Source: Psammoneis japonica (lineage: Eukaryota). Taken from it: a stretch of 64,000 bases of DNA. Shown here in pieces: positions 6,001 to 61,362 of the stretch. Both the position numbers and the translations under genes were made by a program. Each line of letters begins with the position of its first letter. Position 1 is the first letter of the stretch. The stretch covers positions 124,001-188,000 of the forward strand of contig QPGO01000151.1 of the NCBI GenBank assembly GCA_008632985.1, written 5' to 3'. The notes under the pieces are model-generated. The model worked only from the letters and a program-made list of their open reading frames with translations, was not told the DNA's origin and did no database searches.

Positions 6001-7750
6001 GCAAAGTCTTCAATGTGGTGATCTGCTGGCCCCATTGGTGGACAAACAGAGCACAGCATTTCTCCAAACTGGGTGACTGTCTCTGGTTGCTTTCAAGACT
6101 GGTTGGGGGTCAGTTCAGCCAGTCTTGAGTGCTGCTGCTGTTCAAGCAACACAGCATCTGATGCCCCCTTTTTCTGTGCCACTGTGTTCAAAGCTTCTTT
6201 CTTGCAAGTTGCCACATCCAAGCAGGCTTCCGATGGCAAATCATTGAAAGGTTCATTGCCATCAGCATCTTGACCAATGCGATGAATCATGTCATGAACT
6301 GCAGCTGGTCCCATGTTTTTAAAGAATGTCAGACTCTTTGGTTCTTTTGGGAAAGTGTTGTTTCCAAACAACACTGCAGTCAAAAACAAGTTCGGACATC
6401 AGCAACACCATCAAGCAAAGGCAGGTCCATGGCCCTGTAAATCCCAATGAGTTGTTGCCAAGACACCCACAGACTTTTTGGGTTGTGCCACTTGACCCCG
6501 TTGCAACCATTTCTTCCTTAATTTCTGCTTCATTGCAGTGTCTGTTTTGCTTGACAGCAATGCCAAAACCAGACAGTTGCAAACATGTGTTGCCAGAAAT
6601 GATTGAAAAGTTGGCATCACTCCCGATGGCCAGATCTGTGGTCTTGGCTGTCAACAGATGCTGAGTGCAACTGGGTCAGCCTCAAAATCTCCCTGCAACA
6701 ATCACAACAACAATTTTTGGGTGCTGTTGGGCATCTGCACCAGACTTTTCTGCTTTCTTGACCCTTTTTTCCAAATCTTCTGGCTGACTCTGCAAGATGC
6801 GCTTCTCCTCCCCTTCATTTTGACAAGATTCTTCATGAAGAATGCAACAGATCTGAAGCAGTTTTGTCTTTGCTCCAATGCAGTCAGCTGCACCATGCTG
6901 ACAATCGAAATCATGCTGCATGGAGGCCTTTTTTACGATGACAACAATCCGGATCAAACACTGCATGGAAGACAAAACCTTCACCAATGAGCTTCAACGC
7001 AAGCTCTGTCGTGTGAGTTCTTGTGTCGGCAATGCCAGTTTCATGGAGTGTTTGTGAACCCATGCAGCAAGCATCTTCTTTGCCCTTTTGCATCACAAAG
7101 AGACTGTTTGCAACAATGTTTGGCCTCCCAGCACATGCAGGAGCTTTGAGCCCAGCTGTGTGCCCATCTCACAAAGACCACGTGGAGCCAATGTGAGCTT
7201 TGGACAGCCCGCATGGATTGCCAGTGCCTGGTTTTCTTTGCTCCATCAAGTTGGAGTGAGTCTTGTGGTTGAGAATGATTTTTCAGTTGTGCTTGGTTTG
7301 TGCACTGCACGAAAAGCAACCAAGATTTTGAAACGCACAAAATCCATTGCGAGAGCAACGTCAACTGGTGACAGCTGATGCTGGCCTTCTTCTTGTGACA
7401 AAATGGGTGCCTCTGTGGCTGGAGAGAGGCAGACATGCACTCTTGTCAGAATTTTGTGTCATCATCAAAGCATTTGATTTTTGCTGAAAGCCTAAAAATG
7501 CCAGCTCTGCCAGGTTGCGTGGTGGATCGCGGATCACGACCCTGAGCTGTGGAACAGGCCTGGTGTCAAAAAGTGTGACTGAAAGGCCAAGCAGCACAAA
7601 ACACAGATGATGGACAGTTTGCCAACTTCAGTGCATGTGCTTCTGCATGAGGTGCCTTTCTTGCCTTTGCATTGTGTTCTGCTAGAGAGTGCATCTCGTG
7701 TCGCTCGTCGCCACGAGCATTGCTCCAGCGCGCAACGCTCGTTTGTGCGA
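1..7750. repeat. Highly degenerate TE-like block, depleted of both TpA and CpG; family not assignable
   Basis: TA and CG are rare while TG/CA are abundant. Only short Cys/His-rich ORFs are present, with no recognisable intact domain. Composition returns to normal near 7750-7800. Confidence 0.6.
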
Positions 7751-10029: not shown

Positions 10030-13000
10030 GAGACAACAGAACATCTTTGGACAGTTCAAAAAGAGCCGGGCAAAGGCCTTGACCAATTCACCGTGGCTGA
10101 ATTGCACTTGTTGGAGATTGGGGCAGTTTTTGATGGAACCCATTCGGACAGCTTGACCCATTTCTTCTTAACTGTGCAGGACAAAAGCTGGGGAAGGCTG
10201 TGTTCAATTGGCAGCGGCCATTTCATGGAGATTGGGACAGCTTTGGATGGCCTTGACCAGTTGTTTGGTGTGAAGCCAGAAGAAGCAATTGTCCCATGGC
10301 ACGATGAGTTTCCACACAGACCGTTTTCATGCAAAAAAGACATGTCCATTGTTGGAGAACAGCTCTGCATCCAAGTCCAAGGCCAAGGCTCAGCACACAA
10401 AACCAGCTGTTTCACGGCCATCAGACAAGTTGAGCCATGTGACACATTGTCTGTGCTGCTGGAGAAGGGTCTGCAGGGGCCCTGGGGTGGATGGCATGGC
10501 ACCCCTTGTGACAGTTCACATTCTTGAAGATCATGCATGTTGGAACCACCACAAAAAATGCATGGGGCACTCAGTGAACATGTCACCAGGCTGTTTTTAA
10601 AATGACATCGGAGGGGAACAATTTGAATCGGGTCAAACTTGACAATTGACAATGTGGGTCTGTCTTTCATTGTCCGCGCAGGTGTTTGGTTCATTGCATT
10701 TGGGGTCCCACTGCACTCAATGGGGGTGGCCACACTGGTGCTTGTTTCATTTGCAATTTGGGTCCTTCATTGAAAATTTAGATCAACAAGTTAGCCCTGT
10801 TTTGTGCTGATGCACAAACAATTCTGATGCCTTCTCATCTTTCCTGTGTCCTCCGTTGATGCATCTGTTGTTCGTCCCCCCCCCCCCCCGCTTCCCATCT
10901 GTCCATCATCCATGCTTCTAATTTTTTTCATTTTGCCAAGTCGTTGCTGTGTCTCAATTTAAATGGCAGCCTGTTGCAGTGTGTCTGCGAACCACAAATC
11001 TGGGTTTTCTGCATCTTGCTTGGCATCTTTGTCTGTTTGCAGCTGATTGTCTTCCTTTTGCCTTGCTGCCCACGCACTCCCAGAACTCCTTTGACCACAG
11101 TTTGTCACACTCCTCTGTGTCCTTGCTCCTTCTCCACTCCTGCATCTGCTTTCCCAATTCCCTGCACCGGTCCAGTCTCTTCTTGTCCCACCAGTGATTC
11201 ATCTTAGCTGCTGAACCCTTGCCATTGCAGAATTTTGCAATGCACAGCTGCTGATGAGAGTCAATGTATCACGGCGACGTGTGCAGCTTTAATGTCACAA
11301 AGGCGTGACAAAAAACTTTGTCTGAGTGGGAGTTGTCTGCAGCAACGTGATCACTGTCGACGCGCAAAACTCTGTGCAGTTCTGCACGTTCCTTCGCACC
11401 ACCACACTGTTCCCAAAACCGGCATGTCAGTGCACATCAGTAAAGAGCCGCAGAGCGTGATGGGGAGGAGTGCAACACACAGCTGCTGATGAGAGCCAAT
11501 GTGTCGCGGCGACGTGTCACAGCCTTTAAATGTCACAAAGGGCCTGACAAAAACAACCTTTTGTCTGCATGCATGCTGCATTTTGCCTTTGGAGTGAGAC
11601 ATCCTCCTGTTTTGCCTCTTTCAACTCTTTCTTTGTTTCGCTGTGCATGTGCACCTGCTTGTTCCAATTGTTCTCTAAAACCAGCAGGCCAAATGCCTTG
11701 TTTTTCACAGACACCAACTTGGCCAAGCAACATCTTGATTTGAAACAATGTTTCCACATTGTCTTCCCCACCACGATTGGCAGGAAGTGCACTGTGAAAG
11801 AGCTTTGTGCCCTCATGCAGTCCTCCCCCCTCTTGCATTTTCTCCAGAGATGGCACCTTGAATTTTTTCTTCCCCCTGTGTGCTCCTCTGGTCATCATCC
11901 ATGCACCCTGTGCATCCACAAAACAACAAGCAACATGTGTCAGCAAAATCTGATTCCCCGTTTTCACCTCACTGTCTTTTGATGCAATTCTTGTGGAGTA
12001 TCTTTCTTCAGTTCCCCACTTGCATTGTTCCTTTTTCTGGTTGTCTGCCTTCATGCTCCATTCTTCAACATTTCCCAAACTCATGCTCTCTTTTCTTGAG
12101 GCACATTGAGCTCAGACAGCACTGTGCCTGCCACTCTTCCATGCTGTTGTCAAGGGCCTTGTCATTCAGAAATTTGCGTTGTCTGAACAACATGTTCTTG
12201 CAGCAGTTCTCCAACACGATCTTGTCCATGTTGTTCATTTTTTCATTGTGTTGCTTTTTCTTTTGTCTCTTGCTTGTCATGTTGTTCTGTTCTTTTGTTG
12301 AAAACATGGTGAGAGTCCCACCTGTGACCACCGATCCACCATTTTGTTGCACCACAGCAGCAACTGGTGCATTGTTCGGTGCCATGTCTGTTCCCTGCTC
12401 TGCACACAATGAGCCAAAATGTTGGTGAGTCATGTGCAACCGCCTCGCATCTGACTTGGTTAACTCTCACCTCTTCTAATGGTGGGCTTTGGTGTTGTCT
12501 GTTCCCAGCTGTCATCAGTGTTGGCACGGTGCTGTGCATTTTGTTTTGTTTGCAAAAAAGTGACCTTTTTCCACATGGTCATGATGAGATTGAAGCACAA
12601 GGCTGCTGTCCACTGATGCACCAGCCCCACCTTCACCAGTTCCTGCACGTTTTTACGATGTGCTCTTTTTTCAAAATTCTGGCACAGATTCTGATTGGTT
12701 GAAACTGTCTGAACACCACAAACTTGTTGTTGTGATCCCCATCAAACAAGCATGCTGTGTCTGCAAAACAAAAGACATGCACATCCAGAGCTGGTGTTCA
12801 CTTTCACTCAATCTAAAAGCCTGTTGCAAATCATGATTCTTTTGCTTGTCACTTCCAAACTCTTTCTTGAACTCATTCTCCACTCTTGATGGCAGTTCTT
12901 TCTCCCAAATCTTCCTTGCACGTTTGGTCTTTTTTCCTTCTTGAGCAGTGTGCAGACATTCAATCAACTGGAGCACTCAGAATCCTCCAATGCTCTCTCA

Positions 13001-14028
13001 CTCTGATGGCACCAAAGGAACAGTCATGGCACAGTGGACGTGACCCATGACAACATGCTCAATCTGGTTGTTGGCAGCTTGAAGGTTGCCCTCAAGCTCA
13101 ATGCTTTGACACACTCCTGCCACTTTCGCCAATGTGTTGCCATGGTGGTGGGATTGCTGAATTGACTGTTTCATTTCCCAGGGTGCCATCCAATCCCATG
13201 AACTTGTTGACATCCTTGTCCTCATGTCACAAATGAGCACAATGTCCTGCATCTGAGAAATTGAGCATCTCATTGAATGCATCTGTGCAGTCCTCCACAG
13301 ATTCCACGGACTCTGCAAACCAGTGGATGTGGGCACAACAAACAATCTCTCTGATGATGTTGTCTGGCAGGTCATGCAATGAAGCCTTGATCCACTCATC
13401 AATTGTCCCCAGGTGCAGGTCAAAGAACTCCATTCTGGGACACATCCACACCATGACTTTTTCATGTGCACAGTTTTGTGATGAAAGAATTCAGCCAATT
13501 TCCAGGTTGGACCCCGCCAGCACATGCTGATGCAGTTCGTGACTCTGCGTTCTTGTTGCCACAAGACAACTCAGATGAACTTGGGTGGACATCACCACAA
13601 CTGGAGAACACAGTCCAGTTGGTCCATGACTTGGCATGCAAGCCACGTTGCAGCACACTGACCACAACATTGCACTCCAACAAGGAGAAGCATTTTCCAG
13701 AGCTGCTGCACATTTGTGAGACAATGCAAGTGCCAAAGTGTCATTTCCAAGATGTCCCACAATGGGCGCACTTTCACTGGTTTTGCTGGCAACAGAGACA
13801 AGTTCACACACCTCCACCCACAACCATTTGTGTTGGGCAAGAATTTGTTGGAGGAACTCCACTGCACCTGCAGTCTGTGGATGTCATCATGTTGTGCAGT
13901 TGCAGGATGGATGTGCATTCTAGGATGCCACACGTCTGTTGTGCAAAAATTCAGAAGTGAGATTTTGCAACTGGCATCTTGTTTTTTGCAGACAAAACAT
14001 GGGTCACACAGAATGGGAGATTTGCTTG
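10030..14028. repeat. Degenerate TE/pseudogene block depleted of TpA and CpG
   Basis: Same composition as 1-7750, with fragmented ORFs. Contains an ~85 bp diverged direct repeat at ~11243-11323 and ~11479-11567. Confidence 0.55.
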
Positions 14029-14039
14029 CAGGAAGTCGC

Positions 14040-14205
14040 TGCAGCAACTCACTCGCACGCTTCTGACATGTGGCATTAATTTTGGATGTCAGATTAACGC
14101 AGCCGTTTGAGAGAGGCTCGCCAGCGTTCGCCAACGCTTGGGGCTCCCCTCTCTTTGGTCTACTCACTTCTTTGTTTTGACATCAGTTTTCAGCTTGAGC
14201 TTGCA
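14040..14205 (+). repeat. Gypsy 5' LTR (166 bp)
   Basis: Direct repeat of 19323-19475/27624-27635. Termini are TGCA...TGCA, probably from TGTA...TACA. Confidence 0.92.
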
Positions 14206-14437
14206 CTGTAATTACAGTCGATTGTAAAGAGCTGAATGAGAAACAATGATGCAACTGATGGGCTTGCGAAACAAGAGAAAAGAGTGTTGAGAGCGAAGGC
14301 AGCAAATTGGGCTTTGGAACAAAAACGGCAAAAGGAGACACGAAAACAACGCGAACAGGATTTGGCGATTCGGGTTGCACAACTCGAGTCGAAGGTAGAG
14401 TGCTTGAAGCAGTTTCTTGGAGGACCAACTTGGCCTG

Positions 14438-15655
14438 ATGAGCAATCGCGAGAGTCTTGAAGAACCGTGCATTTTGCATGCTGTGAAATTTGCTCATTCG
14501 GATTTGGAACTTGTAAAATTGACTCAATCGCATGATGATGGTAGCACGCGTACGAAGAAGTGCCCTTGTTTTGACGGAACTAATGGCATTGAAGCGTTGT
14601 TGTTCGTGGAAGATCGTTTTCGTAAACTGGCTGCAAAACTTGAGTTCACTGCAGGCGAAGAACTGTTTGACAATTTCGAGGAAGTGTTGACAGATGCCGC
14701 TGAAGATAAATGGTCCAATCTCACCGTGGCCATTCCGAATGCACAGAAGACGGTGGCTCGTTTTGACCAAGAATTGGCTCGTTTTTATTTGTCACATTGT
14801 GAAACTGAAGCGCGTGACACGATGATTGAATGCTTGCTCTCTCTTAAAAAACCACATGATGTTGAAGCACAGGCACATGCGGATCGAATGGAGACCTCAG
14901 TGCGATGCACGAACAAGTTGCCGGGAAATGATCCAGTTGTCACTCAGAACCAAAAGAAGAAGATGATCTTCAACAGCTTCCCTTTGTCGTGGCGCGAGAT
15001 GCATGCAAGAGCAGGACGAACGATTGGAAATGACACGTTGGCGGAAATTGCAATGCACATGAGCACGGATAAATCATTTGCAGATGGAAACAAGAAGACT
15101 TCGAAGAAGCGCAAAGACGGACAGTCAAAAGGTGGCGGCTCCACCAAGAAGAAAGGCAATTGCATTGACCCAGAATCTCAATGTCCTTTGCATGCTCACA
15201 ATCACAAGTGGAAAGATTGCGTCATGAATCCCGACTCTAACAACCACCGTCCAAGAACTGATCGCGGAGGTCGCGGATGTGGTGGCCGTGGCTGTCGAGG
15301 TGGCGGTCGAGGTGGAGGTCGTGGTTGTGGCGGAGCGCAAGGTCGTGGTTGGCAAGGCCGTGGCCATCAAGGTTGTGGTGGTGGCCAAGGAAACTACGGT
15401 GGTCGCGGAAACCATGACTCTGGTGGCAACAGCAGCGAGCATCATGATGATGGTGGCTCTTACATGCAACATCAAAACGACACCCGAACCAATGCAGATG
15501 GCGGCGGTTGCGGCAATCCGGCCAGAACGGCTCCTCCCAATGATTGGTCTGCTGAAAGCCATCATCTTGATTCGACAGGAGGGCCTCGAGAGCATCGAGG
15601 TGGAACGGGAAGTTTTCGACCTGGTGGTCGCTTCTCGGGACGCGGTCGACACTGA
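14438..15655 (+). pseudogene. gag: Gypsy gag-like ORF with C-terminal RGG-rich region, TpA-mutated
   Basis: Lies after the 5' LTR. Has a CPLH..H.W..C knuckle-like motif and GRGCGGRGC repeats (probably from GRGY). Confidence 0.8.
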
Positions 15656-15924
15656 CCCAATGAGCTTGAAGAGCTGTCGTCCGAGTGTGTCGCTCCTGAT
15701 TTTTACATGTTTGATGATTGTGCTGATTGTGTTGATGATTGTTGTGCACATGCTGCTGATTTATTTGATGATGATGATTTTGGAAATTGTGCTGTGAATG
15801 ACGAAGACGATGTGGGACTTGAGTGCACTGCACCAACCCCAAAAACAAACCAATTGAACCATTGAATGTGGTCCCAACAACCTCATTCGCGGCGTGATTC
15901 ATTCAAGATAAGGAAAGCAAGCGC

Positions 15925-18900
15925 GTGATGCGGGCATTGCTTGATTCCGGTGGAACCCATTCAATGATTCATGCTCGGGTGTTGCCGGTTGGAGCGGTTC
16001 CAGCATTGGAAGAGACAGGACCGATTCGTGCGAAGTTTGGGACAATGGCAGGAGAATTCGAATCAACTCGTTGTGTTCGATTGCAGGACTTGGTGCTCCC
16101 TGAATTCGACAAGACCAAACATGTTGATGGCATGCATGCGCATGTGTTTGACTCACCCTGCCAGTGTGATGTGATCCTTGGACAGGACTTCTTGGCGAGA
16201 GCGGGTGTCACATTGGATTTCGAACATGGAATTGTCAAGTGGCTCGGTTCAAGCATTGCAATGAAGCCGAAGAATCAGCGGACTGGCATCCAGCAATGGC
16301 TCGATGATTTAACTGATGAACTGGCCAATGATGATGACGTGTGGGACAGTCACATCCTCAATGCAAAGCATGAGGAGACGTCCCCGTCTGAAGTGGCTTC
16401 AGCTCAGAAGCATCTCACTGCCGAACAGCAAGAGAAATTGCGTCTCGTGTTGGAGAAACACACTGCTCTTTTTGATGGCACCCTTGGCAAGCACACTGGC
16501 GAAAAAGTTCACCTTGACATTGACCCTGACGCCGTTCCGTGCCATTCTCGAGCGCGTGCAGTGCCGCACAATGATCTCGAGACTTTTGAGCGAGAATTAG
16601 ATCACTCAGTGGCTCTTGGCGTTCTTGAAGAAGCCGGAACTTCGGAATGGGCTGCAGGTGCCTTTATTCGGCCGAACAAAGATGGTCGAGTGCGGTGGCT
16701 CAGCGATTTTCGGGAACTCAACAAAGCCCTCAAGCGCAAGGTTTGTCCCTTGCCGATCATTCAAGATGTGTTGCAAAAGAGAGCCAGGTGCAAATTTCTT
16801 ACAAAGTTGGATCTCTCAATGATGCATCATGCGTTTGAACTGGACGACAATTCCAAAGATCTGACGACAATCGTGACACCCTTTGGAAAGCATCGATGCT
16901 GCCGTCCAGCAATGGGTTTGAAGCCGGCTCCAGATGTTGCGCAATGCTTGATTGAGAAAACTGCACATGACTTGGACGTTGACGCACACATTGATGATCT
17001 CGCTCAATTTGATGACAATTTTGACACTCACCTTGCTCGTCTCAACAAACTCCTGCAACGTTTGGAAGAAGCTGGATTTAAAGTGAACCCTTTGAAATGT
17101 GAATGGTGTGTGCAGGAAACGGATTTCCTTGGGCATTGGCTAACTCTGACTGGAATTCGTCCGTGGAAGAAGAAAGTGGAAGCCATTCTGCGAATGCAAC
17201 CTCCGGAAAATGTCAAGCAGCTTTGTTCGTTTCTTGGTGCTGTGACATGCTGTCGCAACATGTGGCCTCGGTGTTCTCACTTGTTGAAACCTTTGACAGA
17301 TCTCACAGGCAAAGGCTCGTGGACGTGGACAGCAGATTGTCAGGCAGTGTTCGAAGAGATGAAAGCAGCACTAGCGGCCGAGACGTTGATGGCGCACCCG
17401 CATCACAACAAACCCTTCCACATCTGTGCCGATGCCAGTGATCACCAAATGGGCGCAGTGATTGTACAAGATGGAAAACCTGTTGCACATTGGTCTCAAA
17501 AGCTGAGCGCGGCGCAACAAAACTGCTCGACGATCGAAAAAGATTTCTTGGCCATTGTCATGTGCTTCCGCGAATTCCAAACAATGCTCCTTGGCGGCGA
17601 CTTGCATGCATTCACCGACCACAAGAACCTTGCCTTTCGCACCTTAAGTTCACAACGTGTGCTCCATTGGCGCCTCTTTCTGGAAGACTTTGCCCCTCAA
17701 TTCCATTGTGTCGAAGGCCGCTTGAATGTCTTGGCTGATTGTTTTTCTCGTTTACCTCGCATGGATCCTCCCTCTGAAGGGAAGAGTTTGGCTCTGGGTG
17801 AAGGAACTGTTGTTGATTTTGCTCCGCTCGATTCGAAGTTGGTGCCGAGTGAGGAACCATCCGAAGTCGAGGATTTCCGCGATGAGGACTTGGAGCTCAG
17901 CGCATGCCGATTCAAGTGTTGTCGCAACATTGAAAATGAAGGCCACTCACACTTCTTCTCTTTCTTCGTTGATGAGCCGGAGCTGTTTGATTCCTTTTTG
18001 AATTGCCCCATGATGCAGGAGATGCAAAATCCAATGACGTTACAACGGATTCAAGAGCACCAGTTCGAGGACCAACAATTGAACCAGATGCGCATTGCTC
18101 ACCCTGATCGTTTCCTTGTGGAACATGTGAACAATCGACCGCTTGTGTGTCATCGTGTGCGACCAAATGATCCTCCAGGACAGTGGAAAATCTGTTTGCC
18201 GACTGCGCTTGTGCCCGACATCTTACGGTGGCATCATCTCGTTCTTGGCCATGCCGGAAGCCAGCGCATGCGTGAAACAATCCAGGCTCATTGTCATCAC
18301 CCTGGGTTGCATTACATGTGTGATGAATGTTCTTGTGCTGATTGCCAACGTGACAAAACTTTGGGTCCTGGCTGTGGAGAACTGCCCAAACGAGAAGATC
18401 AATTGACTCCCTGGTCGGAAGTGGCGGTTGACCTCATTGGCCCGTGGAAAATCAAAGTGCCGAATGGAGAGATTGAGTTTCGCGCGTTGACCTGCATTGA
18501 TCCTGTCTCTGATCTTGTTGAACTGGTGAGGATTGAGAACAAAACTGCTCGACATGTTGCCAACCAATTCGAAAACTGCTGGCTTGCACGCTGTCCCAGA
18601 CCGAATCGATGCATCCACGACAACGGCGGCGAGTTCACCGGGTGTGAGTTTCAGATGCCATTGCAGCGAGCCGGAATTGATGATGCACCGACCACTTTGT
18701 ACAACCCTCAAGCCAACACCATTTGTGAACAAATGCACCAGACTGTCGGCAATGTGTTGCGCATGCTCATTGCTTCTGATCCACCTCAAAACCTTCAGGA
18801 TGCAGCTGGCCTCGTGGACGATGCTTTGGCAACTGCAATGCATGCAACCCGTTGTGCTGTTTCCCGTTCCTTGCAGATTTCACCAGGTGCTGTGGTGTTT

Positions 18901-19362
18901 GGATGTGACATGATCTTGGACATCCCAGCACTGGCGGATTTGTTGACGATTCAAGGCCATCGCCAGATGCTGATCAACGACAACTTGCGAAAAGCCAATG
19001 CAAAGAGAAGATCCTGCGATTGTCAAGTGGGCGATCAAGTTCTAATCAAGCACATTGAGCCATCCAGACTCAAGCCTCGTGCTCATGGTCCTTGTCCTGT
19101 TGTTCAAGTGCATGTAAATGGCACACTCTCGGTTCGTCGAGCTCCTCATGTGGTTGAGCGCCTCAACATTCGGCGCCTGATTCCTTTTTCGCGGTTGATC
19201 AGGGGGTTTTCTTCCCAACACCTGGGTTTCCTCCTGTTGTTGTCTTTGCTTTTGGTTTTTGGTCCTTGGTTTTTGGCCCTTTGCATGATCCTCCAGTTCT
19301 TTCGGATCATGGAAGGGAAGAGTGCAGCAACTCACTCGCACGCTTCTGACACACAGCATTGA
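15925..19362 (+). pseudogene. pol: Gypsy pol (protease, RT, RNase H, integrase); frame open but conserved Tyr residues destroyed
   Basis: ALLDSG protease; DFRELNK; RT HIDD in place of YIDD; RH ICADASDHQMG; integrase VDLIGPW and IHDNGGEF. Only 2 Tyr in 1145 aa. The true C-terminus probably lies near 19190. Confidence 0.92.
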
Positions 19363-19475
19363 TTTTGGACATTGGATCAACGCAGCCGTTTGAGAGAGGC
19401 TCGCCAGCGTTCGCCAACGCTTGGGCTCCCCTCTCTTCGGTCTACTCACTTCTTTGTTTTGACATCAGTTTTCAG

Positions 19476-19753
19476 TGACAGGATTTGAACAGGATTTGGG
19501 TGCGTGCGAAGCATCGCGCGCTGTTTAGTTTGCCGCGCACAGTTTTTGTGTGCTTTAGTTCCGCGTGTTCACGCGCGATGTAGTTTGCTTTCGAGCCACA
19601 AGGCTCACAAGAATGACAACAGTGGCCCGATTGTGCCGACTTACACGTCTTTCGGCTCCTGCAACGGTCTCTGAGCGGAGACTTGTCTGCCATTTAGACA
19701 GCAGTGAGGAGTTGTTGTTTTGAATTCTTGCCATTTGCCTTCAATTTCTGTCA
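19476..19753 (+). repeat. Copia 5' LTR
   Basis: Direct repeat of 27342-27618 with terminal inverted hexamers. Confidence 0.93.
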
Positions 19754-22700
19754 GATTGACAGTCTTGCTCATTGTCAACCCATTGAGCAACCGCCATCAT
19801 CGTCGTTGATTTACCAACGACGCCACCTCAATCCTGCGTGGACCTCCACGCACATTCTACATGCACCGGCAAGTCTGCGCGCATTCAATGCCAGGGCATC
19901 GGCAGGAGGTTAACGGTCAAGAACCCCACACATTCAAGGATCTTAGTCGCTGAAGACATGCGCACACACACATGTCTTCACGGCCAAGAACCTTTACCCA
20001 CTCTTCGGACTGCAGTTTTGCTGCCACTCTACAAGCACACCGAGTCCATTGCACCTGATCTACCCCGGACCACTGGTGCCCCACAGTTCTGCCAGGTCCA
20101 CGAGGACGACTGTGAGAGCAAGCAGCCGTGATTACAGCCTACGGTGGGGCGAGGGTGCTTTCCCGCGTTTGTTCATTCGTCCACAGCGCCTGACGCCTGT
20201 GTCAACTGGCCAGCCTGATTGGGAAATCCAACCGACATAAAATGAGAACGGTTCGGGGGTCTTGTCCACCTCTAGTCAGCTTACCTGCAGGGGTTTACAA
20301 CCCGCTACTCCGCTCATAAGCAACCCAAAGCGCCACCAGCTGCGGGTTCGGACGTGCCGGCACAACTCTACGGACCGGATGGGAAGTTTAGCACTTGACA
20401 ACGAACGGGACAGCAAAGCCCGGCGACTTCTGATTTTAAGATAGTTCAAGATTTCAAGTCAAGTCCATTTCAAGTCAAGTCTATTCTCACCCAAGTTTCG
20501 AGTCTACCTTCGCTTCCCAACCAGAATTGATTGTCCTGACACCACTTTTGTCTACCATGGTTCTCACTCGTCAGCAACAAACCGATGGTTTCGAGCACGT
20601 TGTTGGAACCGTGCTTGCCCAAGGTGCTGGGAGTCCTCTTCGTTTGGCTTTGGCCCAAGACGGCACGGACTCGCATCAGGAACTATTCACGTTCATGCCG
20701 TCCCAAATCGACTCGCTTGAGTGCGACAACGGCACCAATGTGATCCCTTTGCCCCGTGGTTATAAGAACATGTTAGCAGCACTGGTTGGTCTGTAAATTG
20801 TCAAAGCACACAAAGGTCTTGACGTTGCCAACGACTCCTCTTTGTTCACGCATGACGAGTTCCTTGCCTGCTGCCTCAGCCCCGACCACATGTCTTCTGT
20901 GTCCATCGGCAGCTCACCCCTTGCACCTCCGCATGTCACCAACCCGACCAAGGCACGCGACCCGGTGCGGGACTTCAAGCGAGGCATCAAGCGTGATCCC
21001 ACCGCTTTCACGGCTCTCAAATCCGACAAGCAGTGGCACACTTGGCACACCTCACTTGTGGCACAAGCCCGTGCCCAAGACGTCGAGTGCATTCTAGACT
21101 CGTCACACAAACCGACCAGCCCCGAAGACAAACTGCTCTTTGCTGAACAGCAAAAGTGCATGTTCGCCGTCTTCGAACGCATCCTTCTCACCGACAAGGG
21201 CAAGGCTCTCATTCGCGAAAATGTGGGGTCTTCTGACGCACAGACCGTCTGCCGCGCCTTGTCTGAGTGCGCGCTTGCCTCCACCCGCGCATCTGTCGAG
21301 TCCTCCACCCTGCTCACGTGCCTCACCACCGCACGTCTTGGTGATGGCACTTAGAAAGGTCCGACCCACGGGTTCATCCTTCATTGGCAAGATCAGTTGC
21401 GCAAGTGCGAGGCACTCATCCCGGCCAGTGACCACTTCTCTGAAGGACAGAAGCGCGTCATGCTCGAGAATGCCGTGCACCCTGTCAAGGAACTCCGTGC
21501 TGTCAAGAACCAAGCTGATCAGCATCGTACGCAGAGTGGCAAGAGCCTCACATGCGATCAATGCTGTGGCTTGCTCCTCTCCGCGGCAGCTCAGCACGAC
21601 AGCACGTTTCAACCCAAGACGACACCTCGAGCTCCCCGACGCGCCACACACGCACACGACGTCTGCTCCGAGGAACCGTCCGACGATGTGTTCTACGACA
21701 TTGACAGCGACATTGACGTCCTTCAGGCCAATGCTGCCTGCACCCGCGGTCCCAGCCTCACCGGTGACCAGTGGAGACATCTCCCTCCCGACCACCAATG
21801 GCTCTGGGATTCGTTGCCCGATTCCTCCAAGGCGATCATCCTTGAGCATTCTCGTCCGCCTCCCTGCAACCCGCGAGCCAGCAACTGCCATGAGTCTGTT
21901 ACGGCCAACCTTCACGACCAACGCCTTGGGAGTGACGGTGATGTCAACTTGTCCAACACGACTCCTGCTGACTCTGGTGACTCCGCTCCACATGTGGACG
22001 CCACTTCGGACAATCCCATCCTGGCGCACCTCACCAAGCGCAAGCCACTGCCACCCGGTGATCTGCAACGTCTGTTGTCTCCTAACCAAGCCCCCAATGC
22101 CAGTCGACCGGGGCCATCCACCGCTTCCTCCACCCCGCCAGCTTCTGCAGATGCCACAGAACTTAACGGCCGCACTTGCCGCCGTGTTGACAACCACAAT
22201 GTCATTTGCTCTGCCTCTGCTCATCGCTCCACACGCACTGGCACTCTAGTCAATCGTGGGGCCAACGGCGGCATTGCTGGCGACGACTTTCGCGTCATTG
22301 CACACACCTCTCGCCAAGTCGACGTTCAGGGCATTGACGATCATCAATTGGTGGACATCCCCATTGTCACCGCTGGTGCCGTCATTGAGACCCAGCGTGG
22401 TCCCGTCATCGCCATCCTCCATCAGTGCGCATGCACGGGCAAGGGCAAGACCATCCATTCCTGCAGCCAGCTCGAATGGCACAAACAGGATGTCAACGAT
22501 CGCTCTGTCAAGGTGCCCAACGGCTTGCAACGCATTGCCACTCCTGATGGCCATGTCATCCCCATTGACATCAAGGCTGGCCTGCCTCATGTTGCCATGC
22601 GACCTTACACTGATGCCGAATGGGACACCCTGCCCCATGTCATCCTCACCGGTGATGAAACATGGGACCCTTTTGTCCTCGATCACTCTGTCACTGACGA

Positions 22701-25142
22701 CGACCAGTGGCACGACGCGATCTCTGACCTGCAGGACGATCCCACTGCCAACCCATTTGACGAATGCGGCAACTGCCGTCATCGTGTCGTTGTCAACGAG
22801 ACCATCATGTCCGCTTCCTTGTCTGCCGATCACGCGTCCGCCCTCGATGATCACCTCACTCCGAACGACGACGTGTTCTACGAGTGTCATCTGCATGCGA
22901 TTGACCCCAAGGGCGATGACGTTCCACCTCCGGAGCGCACTGTGCAGCCCAAGGACCCCCCCTTCGAGTCTCTTCGGCCTTGCTTTGGCTTCCTGCCTGC
23001 CGATGCGGTCCGTCATGCTTTTGACTGCACCACGCAGTGCGCCCGCATGCCCGCCGGCACACACCTTCGCAAGGCCTGCAAATCACCCAACCCCGCCCTT
23101 AATGTGCACCGCCGCAACGAGCCCATCGCCACTGACACCGTTTGTGCCGACACCCCGGCCGTCGACTCTGGTTGCACCAGCGCCCAACTGTTTGTTGGCA
23201 CCGAGTCTACCGTCACTGACGTCTGCGGCACTGAGACGGACAAAGAGTTTGTCAACACACTCGAGGATCAGATCCGTGAACGTGGTGCCCCATCCAAACT
23301 CATTGGCGACCGTGCTCAAGTTGAGATCAGCAACAAAGTGCTCGGGATCCTGCGCGCCCTCTTCATCTCCAGCTGGCAAAGTGAGCCTCACCAGCAACAC
23401 CAAAACTTTGCCGAGCATCGACACCAGACCGTGAAGCACATGGCGAACACTGTCATGGATCGTTTTGGTTCGCCCGCCCACACATGGCTGCTGGCGCTCA
23501 TGTGCATGTGCTTCACACTCAACCATGCAGCATCCCCACGTCTCCACTGGCGCACGCCCCTCGAGACTCTCACTGGCTCCACCCCGGACATCAGCCCATT
23601 GCTTCGCTTTCACTGGTGGGAACCCGCGCACTTCCACCTCGATGACTCCGATTGGCCACCCGAATCCCGTGAGTTGCGTGGACGCTTCGTTGGCATTGCT
23701 GAGCACGTCGGCCACCAGATGACCTTCAAGATTCCATCTGACGAGACTCAGAAGATCCTCTGCCGGTCCAACGTCCGCTCCGCTGCCCCCGATCCTGCCG
23801 TTCGAAACCTGTGTCTTGATCCTCCTGATGGGGAGCCACCTGAACCCATCATCAAATCTCGCCATGACGACAACCCCGTCGATTCTCCTGATGGGGAGAT
23901 CAGGACACCCAAGATGCCAGTTTTCGATCCGCAAGACATCATTGGACGCACCTTCCTCATGCAGCCACAAGAGGACGGACAACGCCACAGAGCTCGCATC
24001 GTCAAGGCCATCGAAGACCACGAATGGAAAGTGAACGGCAATCCCGAGCTCACTGGGTTCGTCTGCTCTGTCAACAATGACGAATGCGAGGAAGTCCTTG
24101 CCCACAATGACGTCATGAATCACATTGAGCAAGAAGACGAAGACACCACTGTTTGGAAATTTCGATGCATCGTGTCACACGAAGGACCTCTGAAGCCTCA
24201 CGACCCAACCTGGAAAGGCTCCAGCTACAACATCATGCTTGAATGGGAAAGTGGGGAGGTCACGTCCGAGCCTCTTGCCATCATCGCCAAGGACGACCCC
24301 GTCACCTGTGCCATCTGTGCACAAGAGAACGGACTCCTCGACACGGATGGCTGGAAGCGGTTCCGCACCATCACGAGGCGCCAAAAGAAGCCATTTCGCA
24401 TGGCCAACCAAGCCAAGCTTCGCTCCTTCCGCACTGCACCTCGCTGCAAGTGCGGGTGCGAAGTTCCCCGGAACTGCAAACACGCCATGTCACTGGACGA
24501 ACGCAACGGCAACCACAAGTGGGGAGATGCAACTAATCTCGAGATGGACCAACTCGACGAATGCGAAGTCTTCTATGACTGCGGGCCCTTCAACTCTTCC
24601 ACTCCTCCTGCGGGACACAAGAAGATCCGAGTGCACCTGGTGTGCGACGTGAAACACGACGGTCGCCACAAGGCACGACTCGCAGCCGACGGGCACCTCA
24701 CGGACGCACCTGTCGACAGTGTCTGCTCCGGAGCAGTCTCCCTCCGTGGCCTTCGGCTGATGATTTTCCTGGCCGAACTCAACGAGTTGGAGACATGGGC
24801 CACCGACATTGGCAATGCCTGCCTTGAAGCCACCACCAAGGAGAAGCTTTGCATTGCAGCTGGACCCGAATTTGGCAAACTCGAAGGACACATCCTTGTC
24901 ATCCACAAGGCACTGTGTGGACTGCGCAGCTCCGGTCTCCGCTGGCACAAGCGCTTCGCCGACTGCCTGCGAGCTGAAGGCTTCTTCCCCTGCCGCGCCG
25001 AACCCGACATTTGGGTGCGCAGGAACGGCGACCACTGTGAACGCATTGCCGTTTATGTGGATGACCTCGCCATTGCCATGAAGGACCCTCAATCTTTGGT
25101 CGACACTCTCACGGAAAAGTGCAAGTTCAAGCTCAAGGGTGC

Positions 25143-25725
25143 CTGGGTTCAAATCATCAACGGTCCTCGCACCATGACAGGATTTAAACAAGATTGACCA
25201 ACTCGATTAAATCCGACCCATCAACCTGAAAAATTGCGATACCCAGGAATCGAACCTAGGTCCTCTTACAACCGGTTACCGACTAAACCATTTGCCGCTT
25301 TCTTCAAACTGACAGGCTTTTTGTACACAGTCACACATGTTTCAGCCAGAGAGTGACACACACCTTTAATTCTTCTTAGAATTCTGTCACTCCCCACAGG
25401 TCACGAAGCTGTCTGACGTCACGAAGCTGTCTGACATCACGAAGCTGTCTGACGTTCCTTTCTTTGGACAATGATGCTTCTCACAGCTCCCCTTCTACCT
25501 GGGCCACATTTTTCTGCACACGCCATGACCTCCCCGGCGAGCTGACAATTGGGCGGCCATTCCGGCCTCGGCATCCCTAATGAGAGCACTGTGTGCATCG
25601 TCGGTCTGTCTCACTGCAGCTTCTCCTCAGTTTTAGAGTCATCTTGAAGGAGCACACACACCTGGGTTCAAATCATCAACAGCCCTCGCACCATGACAGG
25701 ATTTAAACAAGATTGACCAACTCGA
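25143..25725 (-). mobile_element. TRIM-like non-autonomous LTR element fragment (LTR end - PBS - ~300 bp interior - PPT - full LTR - PBS)
   Basis: On the minus strand: GGGGAG PPT (25395-25390), 215 bp LTR 25389-25175 with TGACAG...CTGTCA ends, and PBS TGGTGCGAGG after both LTR ends (from 25174 and 25693). The interior is non-coding with a 3x18 bp tandem repeat at 25401-25454. Confidence 0.75.
25235..25298 (-). ncRNA. tRNA-derived Pol III-type cassette lacking a normal anticodon arm, inside the TRIM LTR
   Basis: Minus strand reads GCGGCAAATGGTTTAGTCGGTAACCGGTTGTAAGAGGACCTAGGTTCGATTCCTGGGTATCGCA followed by ATTTTT. It has an A-box-like TGGTTTAGTCGG, a B-box GGTTCGATTCC in a T-stem, a partial acceptor stem and an oligo-T terminator. 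Confidence 0.65.
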
Positions 25726-27341
25726 TGAGTGCGAAGTCTTCCATGACTGCGGGCCCTTCAACTCTTCCACTCCTCCTGCGGGACACAAGAAGATCCGAGT
25801 GCACCCAGTGTGCGACGTGAAACACGACGGTCACCACAAGGCACGACTCGCAGCCGACGGGCACCTCACGGACGCACCTGTCGACAGTGTCCACTCCGGA
25901 GCAGTCTCCCTCCGTGGCCTTCGGCTGATGATTTTCCTGGCCGAACTCAACGAGTTGGAGACATGGGCCACCGACATTGGCAATGCCTGCCTTGAAGCCA
26001 CCACCAAGGAGAAGTTTTACATTGCAGCTGGACCCGAATTTGGCAAACTCGAAGGACACATCCTTGTCATCCACAAGGCACTGTGTGGACTGCGCAGCTC
26101 CGGTCTCCGCTGGCACGAGCGCTTCGCCGACTGCCTGCGAGCTGAAGGCTTCTTCCCCTGCCGCGCCGAGCCCGACATTTGGATGCGCAGGAACGGCAAC
26201 CACTGTGAGTGCATTGCCGTTTGTGTGGATGACCTCGCCATTGCCATTGAGGACCCTCAATCTTTCATCGACACTCTCACGGAAAAGCACAAGTTCAAGC
26301 TCAAGGGTGCGGGACCCATTGAGTTCCATCTGGGTTGCGACTTCTCCCGGGACCCCGACGGAACCTTGTGCCTGTCTCCGCGCAAGCACATCGAGCGCAT
26401 GGTCGACAGCTGCACCCGACTGTTTGGGGAGAAACCTGCCACCAACGCCCTGTCACCTCTAGAGAAGGGTGACCACCCCGAACTGGACACTTCCGAACTG
26501 CTGGGACCCGATGGCATTCACAAGTTCCAGTCTCTTGTTGGTTCACTCCAATGGGCAGTGTCCCTTGGTTGAATTGACATCACCACGGCCGTCATGTCAC
26601 TCTCTAGCTTCCGAGCTGCGCCCCGTCAAGGCCACTTGGATCGTGCCAAATGCGTCTGTGGGTGCCTCTCCAAGATGCAACATGGTGCTCTCCGCGTTCG
26701 CATGGAAGAGCCCGACTGTTCGGATCTCCCTGCTCCGGCCCATGAATGGATGCATTCCGTGTGTGGTGAAGCAGAAGAGATGATCCCGAAGGACGCTCCA
26801 CCGCCCCTTGGCAAGTTCGTCACTGCCACCCACTACGTTGATGCAAACTTGCACCATTGCATGCTCACCGGACGCTCTGTCATGGGAATGCTCCACTTCC
26901 TCAACAAATTCCCGGCTGATTGGTTCTCTAAGAAACAAGCCACCGTGGAGACTGCGACCTGCGGGTCTGAATTTGTTGCCGCAAGGACTTGTGTTGAGCA
27001 GATTATCGACCTGCGCATCACCCTGCGCTGCCTTGGTGTCCCGATCTGTGATGTTAGTTACATGTTCGGTGACAACAAGTCGGTTGTAGACAGTGCCACC
27101 ATCCCGCACTCCAAGTTACACAAGCGACACACCGCACTGTCGTTCCACCGTGTGCGTGAGGCAATTGCCTCTGGCCACCTTGAGCTCCACTTCATCGAAG
27201 GCTCCCGCAACCCTGCTGACATTCTCAGCAAGCATTGGGGTCACTCCCAAATCTGGGACCTTCTCCGCCCCCTCATGTTCTGGAACTTCATTCCATCCGA
27301 AGTCGAATCTGTTTCTGTGGCTCCTCAAACAAACTGGGGAG

Positions 27342-27618
27342 TGACAGGATTTGAACAGGATTTGGGTGCGCACGAAGTGTCGCGCGCTGTTCAGTTTACC
27401 GTGCACAGTTTTGTGTGCTTTGGTTCCGCGCGTTCACGCGCGATGCAGTTTGCTTTCGAGCCACAAGGCTCACAAGAACAACGACAGCAGCCCGATTGTA
27501 CCGACTTACACGTCTTTCGGCTCCTGTAACGGTCTCTGAGCGGAGACTTATCTGCTATTTAGACAGCAGTAAGGAGTTATTGTTTTGAATTCTTGCCATT
27601 TGCCTTCAATTTCTGTCA
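27342..27618 (+). repeat. Copia 3' LTR
   Basis: Direct repeat of 19476-19753. Its right half retains ancestral TpA. Confidence 0.93.
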
Positions 27619-28664
27619 TTCAGCTTGAGCTTGCAGTCGCCGCAAAAGCGTGGAAAGTCTGTCGCGGATACTTTCCACTTTATTAATAATATTCATATAT
27701 ATCAAAATATATGAAATTATTAAAATGTTATGAATAACTTATATTTTCCTTTTTATATTGCCCTTACAACCTAAGTAATTTTGGTTCGCAACCGTTGAGT
27801 GATAATGTTTTATATATAGTGATAAGGTGTTCATTAAAAGAGGGTCATTATGACCGTTTTTGATCAATGACTTTCCACGATAGAATTACATCGTGGCTAT
27901 CGTGGAAAGTGAAGACTTTCCACGATACTATCGTGGAAAGTCATATGACTTTCCACGATGACTTTCCACCTTTCGAGGCTTATGTAAATGCCCGAAAAAT
28001 AGGGTCATATGACAAGATTTTGATCTCATCACAACGCCTTGATGCTTATAAATCTTGCCATTTTCCAACATGATTTTGGAACAACTAGTTCAAGAGCCGG
28101 GCTCGGTCTCGTCAGGAGGCCTTCAATGCACGCATCAAGAACTTCGCATGCCTTTCGGAGACGTTTCGCCACGGCATCAAGAAGCATCGACGATGCTTCG
28201 AGGCCGTGTGCGTGATTGCGCAATACCAGTTGGAATGTGGCTCACCCCTCTTTGACATTTAAAAGTGAGTGACGCCACATCACGAAGTTTCTAGTCATTA
28301 ACATTTAACAAATGACTTTCCACGATCATTTGTCATTAATGACTTTCCACGATATTTAACGACTTTCCACGATAGCATCGTGGAAAGTAAAGACTTTCCA
28401 CGATAGAATTGAATCGTGGAATACTTTCCACGATGCGACTACCTTCCGTTGAATTATGACTGCATTAAATAAACGTTATACACAGTAATTAAATGTGTTT
28501 TAATTAATGGGGCAGTGAGTATTTTTTCAACGGACAGTGAGAGGGCAATATATGGATTCAGGTGTCCTGTTCACGTAATCCCATAGTATATTCTATACTG
28601 AGAAGTGCGAGCGTGTCCACTACGACACTCAACGTACTTTCCACGCTTTTGCGGCGACTTCCAG

Positions 28665-30300
28665 GCCAATGGTTGGTGCATTGTCATGCCTTGCCCAAGC
28701 AGCAAGGAACCAACCCAAGGCATGGTTTGTGCTTGGTTGCATCACCGCGCCACCTCAGGCAGTGACTGATCAGTCCTTCACCAGCAAGCCGCCTTTGGCT
28801 GGACCATTGCAATCCAAGGGTCTCCACTGGTTGAGATTGTGCTGGCCCCATTTGTGGGTGCTTGCCCTCTTCATGTTGAGCTGAAGCCTGTGGAGCTCTG
28901 TTCCTTGTGAGGTTCATTTGCTGGGCAATCAAATTTTGCAGCCTTTCAAGTTGCGCTGGTGCAGACAACTGGTGTGACAACAAGTCTTTGGCAAGGCTCC
29001 ACTGCAACTTTCAGCAATTCATCCTGCCAAAGGCAATTGAGTCACCCAATCTGGAGCAAGACTGCCACCTTCGACACCGTGGCACTGACATCCTTTCACC
29101 TGATTGGGGTGTCATCAACAAGATTCACCAGACCACCATTGACATTGCCTTGTCATTGGATGCCTCCTCCTCCAGCCAAGCAGCTGCAACAGAATGGGTC
29201 AAAGGCCGCCAAGATTGGATGGCTCCAGTCTCATCCCTTCCTCTCAATGCCAAGGCAAACATCAGAGCTGAAAAGCCAGCTGGGAGATGCCAGCAACAGC
29301 ACTCTTCTGACACCTCTGTGGTTCTTCCATTGCCTCATTGCCAGGTGCCTCTCAATGTTGTGGATGGAACAGTTGATGCTGGATTGAAGGCAATGGTGAG
29401 GTGCACAACTGCAGCTCCTGCCTTCCTGGAACACATTAGAGAATGCAACAGATGAGACAACTCTGTCACTGACAAATCAGATTGGAAGCTTCATGCCTCT
29501 CTGGTGTGCAGATTTTCTTGCAAACACGTGTCCACTGTCAAACTCATTCACAAACTCCTTCCTGCAAACAAGATTGTGAGCCAACACAATCCAGTGCCTC
29601 CTCATGCATCGCTGTTTTTGTTGTGCGAGTCTCCATTTGAAGATCAGGATCACATTCTCCAATGCCTGGACAGCGAGCATTGGTGATGCACTTTTCCGCA
29701 GGGCCTCCACAAACAATGCAACAAAATTGACACTGAGCCACCATTGTGTGATCTTCTGCTGCGTTCCATCAAAGCTTGGTTTCAGGACACCATGGAATGC
29801 AAATCTGACATCACTTCTGTGCTCCAACCTCTGTGTTGTGTGCAAACTGACATTGGTTGGCAACAACTTTTCAATGACCGTCCCTCATTGTTGTGGAACA
29901 CTCTTGTCAAGAAATGCATCTTTGTGAACCAGGCCTTCTTGCAAAATCCCAGAGAGAGATTGGTCCTCTGCCAGTGTGGGTGGCGCAAATTGGCGCTCAC
30001 ATTTGGAACTCCCGGTGAGAATTGTGGAAAGCTCACAACAAAGCAATGCATGGGCATGGCAAAAATGCCAGGAAATCACCCCAACGACAATGTGCCGAGG
30101 CTGAGCTCACAGCCATTTGCAACAAACGACAAGAACACCTGGCCAAAGGCAGCAACAAACTGTTGGACTCCATCAAGGAACATCTGTCATTTGTTGCCTC
30201 CCAGATTCTGAATTGGATTGCTGTGGTGAAACCATGTCTAAAGGAGAGCCAGGGCTGGCATTGCTGGCAAAGGAGTGACAGCAGCACTTGAAATTTGGGT
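28665..30300 (+). mobile_element. Degenerate non-LTR retrotransposon 3' region (RNase H-like and C-terminal Cys/His domains)
   Basis: Frame fragments PSSC*AEACGAL (cf. SSYRAEAYG), WCDNKSL, LSPDW, WVKGRQD (cf. WVKGHQD), EDQDHILQC, QTDIGWQQLF and WKAHNKAMHG. Confidence 0.7.
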
Positions 30301-54200: not shown

Positions 54201-54369
54201 CATCAGCTGCAAAACAGTCCTCTCCCTTGATGAATGAACATCAAGACAGGTGGGTCCTGACACCAGCTCTTCATGAGCTCCGTGAGCCATCATGCTCTGG
54301 CGAGTCGACGCATGCACACACACTGATGACACTGCATCACACGATGGCACAGCTGAGATTGATGTGCTC

Positions 54370-54745: not shown

Positions 54746-54912
54746 TGCAGGCACTCTGCAACAGAGAGCAGTTGTTCTCTTTGTGCTTGGTTCAGATTGC
54801 AATGGGAATCTTTCGAAAATGACCCGTGACGTAAAAAGCACAAAACAGCTGTGGACACCTGCAGAATCTACATGTTTTTGTGCTGAAACTGTTATGTTCA
54901 CACAATTTGTGC

Positions 54913-61340: not shown

Positions 61341-61362
61341 AAGGTAACGAGGCGAAACTCAT

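Follow-up and report, generated by a model that had tools for sequence, protein, structure and literature searches.

The 64-kb window analysed here (64,000 nt of contig QPGO01000151.1 from Psammoneis japonica) holds a Ty3/Gypsy long terminal repeat (LTR) retrotransposon with a Ty1/Copia LTR retrotransposon nested inside it, a small DNA transposon, four blocks of old decayed DNA and several islands of host genes. The two retrotransposons and the four old blocks, which make up about 72% of the window, have lost up to 95% of their expected TA sites and are enriched in TpG and CpA. We consider it probable that a targeted process turns the TpA of integrated mobile DNA into TpG or CpA, that it acts mostly in place, and that its likeliest basis is a TadA/ADAT-like adenine deamination.

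The window is diatom nuclear DNA. The host genes are of diatom type, and the best named relatives of the serine palmitoyltransferase exon at 55782-57290 are Nitzschia, Craspedostauros and other diatoms (72-73% identity). Coordinates of the features are given in Table 1.

Table 1. Features of the 64-kb Psammoneis japonica window.
Feature	Position	Strand	Remarks
Ty3/Gypsy LTR retrotransposon	14040..27635	+	LTR alignment and Pfam; TpA-depleted, split by Copia
Gypsy LTRs	5' 14040-14205; 3' 19323-19475 plus 27624-27635	+	LTR alignment
Gypsy target-site duplication	14035-14039 and 27636-27640		GTCGC
Gypsy pol frame	15898..19362	+	Open, mutated; 1154 aa
Ty1/Copia LTR retrotransposon	19476..27618	+	Nested in Gypsy 3' LTR; Pfam RVT_2
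Copia LTRs	~19476-19753 and 27342-27618	+	
Copia target-site duplication	19471-19475 and 27619-27623		TTCAG
Copia gag-pol frame	21355..25197	+	1280 aa
DNA transposon (~1 kb) with terminal inverted repeats	14031-14039 plus 27636..28663		Not depleted
Old depleted block	1..7480		TpA and CpG both nearly gone; no recognisable domains
Old depleted block	10170..14030		Mostly single-copy by read depth; TA-type and CpG-type differences to read contigs
Old depleted block	28664..39050		TpA and CpG depletion
Old depleted block	44100..54730		Holds ancient tandem duplication
Host gene island	54870..64000		Serine palmitoyltransferase, CCT-domain protein, others; TpA normal (44 TA per kb), CpG normal, short intergenic spacers included
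Further host gene islands	7700-9998 and 39060-43755		

Loss of TpA from the retrotransposons and the old blocks

Observed/expected ratios (O/E) of dinucleotides were pooled over strands for the host islands (17.1 kb), the Gypsy and Copia elements (13.6 kb) and the old blocks (32.4 kb). The TpA ratio was 0.65 in the host islands, 0.16 in the two elements and 0.05 in the old blocks. TpG/CpA rose over the same series from 1.14 to 1.42 and 1.80, and for CpG the young elements gave 0.86, the old blocks 0.26. Within the window the depletion was limited to mobile or decayed DNA, with the gene islands at background. The short spacers inside the gene islands also had normal TpA and CpG, and therefore no genome-wide bias masked by selection in the genes is at work. 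A preliminary description of this DNA, made from its letters alone, had set the limits of the signal at 14040..27635. These are exactly the limits of the Gypsy element, from the first base of its 5' LTR to the last base of its 3' LTR, but the signal extends to 32.4 kb more.

The Gypsy element retained 39 TA in 5436 bp. Its pol frame gave Pfam matches to RVT_1, RNase H, rve, Integrase_H2C2 and Asp_protease_2, with RVT_1 and two RNase H models above their curated cut-offs and the other three matches below. TA density was 4-7 per kb in the interiors of Gypsy and Copia and 18-32 per kb in the Copia LTRs. Two Copia stretches were richer than the rest of that element (about 4 TA per kb), namely the leader between LTR and gag at 19754-20800 (26 TA per kb) and a patch at 25181-25660 (27 TA per kb), which sits between rearranged segments where read depth falls. 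These TA-rich stretches may be later insertions or protected parts.

Copia is also internally rearranged. A segment of 601 bp from the reverse transcriptase region, 24542-25142, recurs at 25710-26310 with 96% identity, and a 66-bp piece recurs in another register (25142-25207 and 25661-25726). The 8.1-kb element is therefore a composite.

The proteins of both elements are poor in tyrosine. Gypsy pol has 2 Tyr in 1154 residues (0.17%) and the Copia frame 6 in 1280 (0.47%), as the preliminary description had noticed. Tyrosine makes up 3.5-3.8% of three host open reading frames (ORFs) and 1.2% of a fourth, the CCT-domain ORF (4/330), so the same description's remark that host genes are spared holds for both tyrosine and TpA. 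Each of the best 120 Gypsy homologues has 2.6-4.5% Tyr and each of 120 Copia reverse transcriptase homologues 2.2-6.8%, with none below 1% in either set. All 80 related Gypsy loci from metagenomes had a TpA ratio of 0.39-0.94 (median 0.65). The tyrosine content of active copies was judged from these homologues and from the LTRs, the organism's own family members lying outside the protein collection, in which a short Copia reverse transcriptase query for less mutated copies of the same family gave no match above 70% identity.

Direction and sequence context of the changes

Since a single template gives rise to both LTRs of an element, differences between them date from reverse transcription or later. 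The pooled LTR pairs of Gypsy and Copia differ by 24 substitutions, of which 20 are TA-type and 4 CpG-type, and none of the 326 other aligned sites differs. Eight of the TA-type sites pair a TG with a CA across the two LTRs; the remaining 12 pair TA with TG or CA. At the 23 visible ancestral TA sites this amounts to 28 events in 46 site-lineages (61%), compared with 4 events in 60 site-lineages at CpG (7%) and 0 in 652 elsewhere. In the LTRs, TpA changed at least about 200 times as fast as other sites, whose rate was set to a 95% upper limit that we took ourselves for zero events, and it outpaced CpG decay several-fold. The TG/CA doublets are not a product of CpG decay, because 7% per lineage over 30 sites gives well under one such site. 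Enrichment of A-to-G change at TpA over other contexts, which the preliminary description had put forward as a check, is thus borne out by the LTRs.

Conserved tyrosine columns were defined as those with Tyr in at least 70% of 120 homologues. The 22 columns of Gypsy read 12 Cys, 9 His, 1 Arg and no Tyr in our element, and the 12 columns of the Copia reverse transcriptase read 9 Cys, 1 His, 1 Arg and 1 Tyr. Over both elements the 34 columns thus hold 21 Cys, 10 His, 2 Arg and 1 Tyr. Tyrosine was kept at 1/34 such columns, compared with 531/588 for the other conserved residues (Fisher p = 2e-29). Among 90 replacements at conserved columns, a single TG/CA-to-TA change would revert 44 and a CpG-type change 12; 34 are reverted by neither. 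The strings HIDD, KVCPLP, MMHHAF, ICADASDHQ, VAHWS, QNCST, GNACLEA and KALCGL, quoted in the preliminary description as former tyrosine positions, are all present in the translations, and the consensus of 26 homologues at the Gypsy positions reads VYIDD, KVYPLP, MMYY.F, YTDASDYQ, VAYWS and KNYST.

Judged from the LTR pairs and the 34 columns, the direction is TA to TG/CA with both strands hit, in agreement with the preliminary description, which had also called the two products interleaved. Along Gypsy pol the order of Cys and His forms 11 runs against 11.3 expected (hand count), without strand-coordinated clusters at the spacing of about 150 bp. Over all places where copies differ in the contigs of sequencing run X1 (described below), 440 transitions stand against 45 transversions, and many CA/TG doublets are listed.

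This spectrum has a consequence for reading frames. TAA and TAG together fell from 18.1 per 1000 triplet positions to 5.7 in the young elements and 2.8 in the old blocks, and TGA rose. Open frames persist under such a spectrum, since TAA and TAG are lost and no new stop can arise from it. The phrase "otherwise intact" that the preliminary description applied to pol is misleading, since open frames are uninformative about function here. The catalytic YxDD motif (YIDD) reads HIDD, and therefore this Gypsy copy is dead.

Survival of TA sites depended strongly on the flanking bases. Relative to a host-like expectation, none of about 59 ATAT sites survived in the young elements and none of about 231 in the old blocks; for GTAC the survivors were 12 of 106 and 2 of 252, and for TTAA 28 of 39 and 70 of 154, respectively. 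An additive two-strand model with four rates fits all 10 NTAN classes. Its rates by the base after A (young/old) were 1.9/2.8 for T, 1.0/2.1 for C, 0.5/0.8 for G and 0.0/0.4 for A. Twice the log-likelihood gain over a context-free rate was 112 for the young elements and 263 for the old blocks, values which are to be halved as strand pooling counts each site twice. About 29% of the TA sites in host DNA are favourable on both strands, but only 4 of the 119 survivors in the old blocks are.

The products followed the context as well. Tyrosine codons after a pyrimidine became 14 Cys and 2 His, and those after a purine 7 Cys, 8 His and 2 Arg (p = 0.02 without Arg, 0.01 with Arg). The preferred motif would therefore be T-A-Y to T-G-Y, where Y is a pyrimidine, which equals R-T-A to R-C-A on the other strand, where R is a purine. 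The trinucleotide enrichment of the products was uninformative, as the compositions of element and host differ. There was no depletion of ApA, whose ratio was 1.18-1.23 in depleted DNA and 1.12 in the host islands.

Borders of the depletion and the spared DNA transposon

The Gypsy element lies in a DNA transposon with perfect terminal inverted repeats of 27 nt (GGAAGTCGCCGCAAAAGCGTGGAAAGT), the right one ending at 28663. The left repeat is cut by Gypsy, 9 nt standing at 14031-14039 and the remainder starting from 27641. The DNA transposon therefore predates both retroelements at this site. It has 14 subterminal copies of GACTTTCCACGAT (up to 2 mismatches, both orientations), where 1.5 would be expected by chance. 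With 73 TA per kb and a CpG ratio of about 1 it is not depleted, although it is bounded by the retroelements on one side and by an old depleted block on the other. Targeting is therefore element-specific and not the effect of a slowly spreading domain.

The other borders are abrupt as well. The last TA sites before depleted DNA lie at 9998 (followed by a single one at 10169), 28635 and 43755, and the first ones after it at 27669 and about 54738. At the Gypsy edge the depletion ends within about 50 bp, the last LTR base being 27635 and the first flanking TA 27669. The sparing of the 1-kb neighbour argues for recognition that is probably sequence-specific, by small RNA or homology, over spreading chromatin.

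The stretch is covered, as contigs, by one sample with four runs from one study. Contigs of run X1 were built from exact 31-mers, with a single-copy depth of about 57 and a longest contig of 315 kb. They span the host gene at 8001-10889 and, in the depleted single-copy DNA at 12197-14039, differ from the window by 7 substitutions and 3 gaps over 1846 nt (>99% identity). Contigs made of exact words should need accurate reads, and miscalling of a modified base by long reads is therefore unlikely. We conclude that the signature is real, a sequencing or assembly artefact being very unlikely.

By summed depth in the same run, Gypsy stood at about 20-45 times and Copia at several hundred to about 1900 times the single-copy level, figures that do not equal copy numbers because contig depths are summed. 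Both are multi-copy families. The old blocks, as examined at 10-14 kb, are mostly single-copy. With old depleted blocks that now exist as single copies and an adjoining older DNA transposon that is spared, the term "repeat-targeted" used in the preliminary description goes beyond what the window supports.

The depletion deepens with age as gauged by CpG, TpA falling from 0.16 to 0.05 and TTAA survival from 0.59 to 0.38, as would be expected of action in place. In the single-copy stretch 10170-13933, where only about 14 TA sites are present, 17 places of substitution are listed between the window and a read contig. They include three single TA-type differences and one CA/TG doublet (two places), which hints at events on resident copies.

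Several further observations were made on the old blocks. The part at 32001-35000 is intermediate, with CpG ratios of 0.63-0.75 and TpA ratios of 0.09-0.14, which fits a TpA loss running well ahead of CpG loss. A segment at 11336-12002 has a summed read depth of about 29,000, compared with 57 for single-copy DNA, and no relation to Gypsy or Copia; it therefore belongs to another abundant repeat family. The ancient tandem duplication (45326-46828 and 46829-48275) has 72% identity and 41 TG/CA doublets between its copies. Among 78 old-block ORFs with a length of 120 aa or more, none matched a Pfam family at or above its curated cut-off, and the below-threshold matches to YABBY_N and DUF2871 were at chance level and were rejected.

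Candidate mechanisms and comparison with known systems

From the observed signature, with its direction, TpA restriction, context and borders, we infer the following about the place of action, the enzyme and its guide. The process would rewrite TpA to TpG or CpA on both strands of integrated mobile DNA, probably for the most part in place on the chromosome. Its context preference is TAT > TAC > TAG > TAA, read for A becoming G, and its stop at element borders is sharp. It would kill the encoded proteins through Tyr to Cys/His and other changes while long frames stay open. Most likely the chemistry is enzymatic: a TadA/ADAT-like deaminase, aimed at silenced elements, would turn A in DNA into inosine, which is read as G.

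Adenine deamination of DNA is our leading guess. The T before and the pyrimidine after the A recall the U33-A34(-C35) target of TadA/ADAT. Every TadA/ADAT substrate known to us carries U33 ahead of the edited A34, and bacterial TadA edits UAC. As far as we are aware, TadA/ADAT2-ADAT3 and their DNA-editing derivatives thus share with the present case the A-to-I chemistry and a T-A-pyrimidine match, and differ in that their known natural role is tRNA editing. A more specific proposal, which we put forward only as a possibility and hold tentatively, is that a dedicated double-stranded DNA adenine deaminase derived from TadA/ADAT2 would be guided to retroelements with nearly base-pair precision, with small RNA or homology, not spreading chromatin, as the guide, and would erase T-A-pyrimidine there. 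It would be shared with chlorarachniophytes and be old within the stramenopile-alveolate-rhizarian (SAR) lineage. If this were true, nature would have produced a programmable editor of DNA from A to G, a mirror image of fungal repeat-induced point mutation (RIP). Workers on genome defence and on genome editing alike would have an interest in a natural adenine editor of DNA that is targeted in this way.

Some observations weigh against a targeted adenine change made mostly in place. A single window of 64 kb supplies all of the evidence. Because TpA is self-complementary, sequence does not distinguish A-to-G from T-to-C, so that the preliminary description's "A changed to G" equally says "T changed to C". 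When the LTRs are taken alone, no more than 8 of the 13 events open to testing obey the TAY product rule. The older DNA transposon is untouched, so that action in place would need very precise targeting, and editing before integration would be simpler. The LTRs and the Copia leader are less depleted (18-32 TA per kb) than the interiors (4-7). In the Copia 3' LTR the outermost 120 bp (27499-27618) kept 8/8 TA sites, compared with 2/8 in the 5' LTR counterpart (19634-19753). The former adjoins non-targeted DNA and the latter is internal to targeted DNA, and the retention resembles an edge effect reaching over roughly the length of one nucleosome. Finally, run X1 is possibly the very sample that was assembled, and its platform is not on record.

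This last point bears on the possibility that base calling is systematically wrong at a modified base of heterochromatic TpA and the TA sites are still there. The platform of the assembly is not on record either, and a strand-specific miscall could yield TG and CA as "coin-flip" calls. Such an artefact is nevertheless very unlikely, as 31-mer contigs at a depth of about 57 repeat the depleted single-copy DNA, which noisy long reads presumably could not do. Mixed miscalls should also create CpG, yet its ratio stands at 0.86 for young elements and 0.26 for old blocks. The strict dependence on neighbouring bases and the Tyr to Cys/His pattern fit fixed mutations, and in Bigelowiella natans the same signature is reported with Illumina data, according to the main text of bioRxiv 10.64898/2026.01.13.699255. 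That the families are TA-poor by native composition or selection and encode Cys or His at these positions would account for the open frames and for nothing else, and we regard it as almost certainly wrong. It is contradicted by LTRs of one element that differ at TA sites, by the 240/240 homologues with at least 2.2% Tyr and the 80/80 related loci with a TpA ratio of at least 0.39, and by a catalytic YxDD that reads HIDD. Editing of RNA by an ADAR-type enzyme was rejected as the sole source, as the LTRs differ at 20 TA sites and both products occur (21 Cys and 10 His). Errors of Pol eta favour A-to-G at WA, where W is A or T, with TA above AA, and the depleted blocks belong to a compartment that is also CpG-decayed and presumably methylated. 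Repair synthesis by such a polymerase in methylated chromatin with frequent T:G mismatch repair, which is related to a candidate of the preliminary description, is nonetheless highly improbable. It is disfavoured by undepleted ApA (1.18-1.23 against 1.12), by 0/326 changes at LTR sites outside TpA and CpG, and by young elements that lose TpA far ahead of CpG (61% against 7% of site-lineages).

Two other routes deserve more weight. An adenine deaminase might edit retrotransposon cDNA during or just after reverse transcription, as APOBEC3 does but on A, in which case the elements would arrive TpA-poor and change little on the chromosome afterwards. Both recognisable victims are indeed LTR retrotransposons, the depletion borders fall at LTR ends (within about 50 bp), and the DNA transposon that hosts them, older by nesting, is untouched. 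LTRs less depleted than the interiors would be expected if the time spent single-stranded matters, and 14 of the 20 TA-type LTR differences are in the orientation allowed to cDNA editing (5' LTR TG or TA, 3' LTR CA or TA). The other 6, however, are in the orientation forbidden to single-strand cDNA editing. TG and CA are interleaved at the tyrosine columns (11 runs, 11.3 expected), the depletion deepens with age, disfavoured contexts included, and TA-type differences to read contigs occur in single-copy old DNA. Moreover, the sole experimental precedent, as described in the main text of 10.64898/2026.01.13.699255, acts on integrated DNA-virus sequence without a reverse transcription step. We therefore favour action in place and judge editing before integration to be unlikely, though of the alternatives it is the one we take most seriously. 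A somewhat smaller chance is given to a thymine route, by which a TET/JBP-type dioxygenase would mark T at TpA as 5-hydroxymethyluracil (5hmU) and then 5-formyluracil, and mispairing with G would change T to C at RTA. This is formally identical to A-to-G at TAY, and dinoflagellates, diatoms and chlorarachniophytes are all in SAR. We know of no 5hmU in diatoms. The modification itself pairs with A, so that further oxidation or a repair error would be required, and there is no TpC effect, 24/24 LTR substitutions being at TpA or CpG. In dinoflagellates, as reported in the parts of PMC11572971 used here, a TET/JBP enzyme produces 5hmU that is concentrated on transposable elements and keeps them silent; according to earlier work cited in that paper, TA and TC are the preferred places for the replacement of T. 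The dinoflagellate mark thus resembles the present case as a base modification of a SAR lineage with a TA/TC preference and a bias to transposons, and differs as an epigenetic mark for which those parts report no mutational signature.

The closest known system is that of B. natans, reported by Mettrop et al. (bioRxiv 10.64898/2026.01.13.699255). According to the main text of this preprint, 231 of 302 new substitutions in a mutation accumulation experiment fell in integrated giant-virus and virophage regions. All but one of these regional mutations were A-to-G or T-to-C, all of these at TpA. The rate was about 6e-7 per site per generation, about 1000 times background, and was seen in some lines only. 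TpA-poor coding sequences of B. natans were enriched for reverse transcriptase and DDE domains, and an ADAT2 homologue was proposed as the candidate enzyme. The preliminary description knew of no described pathway of this kind, a statement that the preprint puts out of date. Literature searches pairing diatoms or TpA with transposon, hypermutation or RIP did not find the signature in diatoms, and a broader search on TpA and A-to-G found nothing closer than this preprint. The words "diatom", "trinucleotide", "context" and "flanking" are absent from its main text.

Like the process in B. natans, as its main text presents it, the one inferred here makes nearly only A:T to G:C changes, only at TpA, with TpG and CpA as products and only in foreign or mobile DNA, and its local rate is orders above background (about 1000 times there, more than about 200 times by our estimate). 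The hosts differ, a chlorarachniophyte there and a diatom here, on different supergroup branches, and so do the victims, giant-virus and virophage insertions there and LTR retrotransposons with decayed remains here. The depletion is also deeper, TpA ratios being 0.05-0.16 here and 0.45 in the B. natans nucleocytoplasmic large DNA virus region. In the diatom the process coexists with CpG decay and a TAY preference is seen, and it is known from sequence rather than from measured de novo events. The diatom case thus provides a second lineage for a just-described TpA-only hypermutation, deeper and better resolved than in the first report. Targeted hypermutation against mobile DNA had previously been of the C-to-T kind (fungal RIP, APOBEC), with the A:T-to-G:C, TpA-only kind known from one preprint on one species. 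To the main text of that preprint the present window adds the T-A-pyrimidine preference, LTR retrotransposons as targets, borders that spare a 1-kb transposon inside the affected domain, and the inability to make stop codons. Gene callers and annotation pipelines take dead elements of this kind for intact ones. If general in this diatom, the process shapes genome composition and inflates ORF predictions, and comparing diatom species with and without the signature would offer a route to the enzyme.

Like RIP in Neurospora and other fungi, the process disables mobile DNA, spares genes, works in a dinucleotide context and leaves many mutations per copy within sharp limits. RIP changes C:G to T:A (CpA to TpA), makes TpA and stops and lowers GC, whereas the changes here are its mirror image and raise GC. 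No C:G-to-T:A excess creating TpA and stops was found in the window; the direction is opposite. As to the duplication that triggers RIP, which also depends on a sexual phase and a RID/DNMT4 enzyme, both elements are multi-copy by summed depth and the old blocks are single-copy now. Decay of 5-methylcytosine at CpG yields the same products, TpG and CpA, and is present in the old blocks (CpG ratio 0.26). It acts on CpG, and the young elements keep a CpG ratio of 0.86 while most of their TpA is gone. CpG decay thus coexists with the loss of TpA and cannot explain it, and the view of the preliminary description that neither RIP nor this decay accounts for the signature is upheld. Diatoms carry RID-like DNMT4 genes of unknown function, and their transposons are CpG-methylated and are de-repressed without DNMT5a, as reported in the parts of PMC9998398 used here.

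APOBEC3 and ADAR are comparable as deaminases that restrict retroelements. APOBEC3 changes C to U on one strand, whereas both strands are hit here. ADAR prefers G after the edited A; here a pyrimidine is favoured after the A. ADAR also edits RNA and would leave the two LTRs identical, whereas here they differ. A likeness lies in the U that ADAR favours before the edited A, as the main text of 10.64898/2026.01.13.699255 also indicates.

A scan of the whole window against Rfam gave no matches, and self-BLAST gave 6 repeat pairs of at least 150 bp in all. The host gene island at the right end of the window contains a tandem repeat (60910-61125 and 61139-61338) of 83% identity, which serves as an internal control for the spectrum. 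Its copies differ by 11 transversions, 7 other transitions and 2 TA-type changes.

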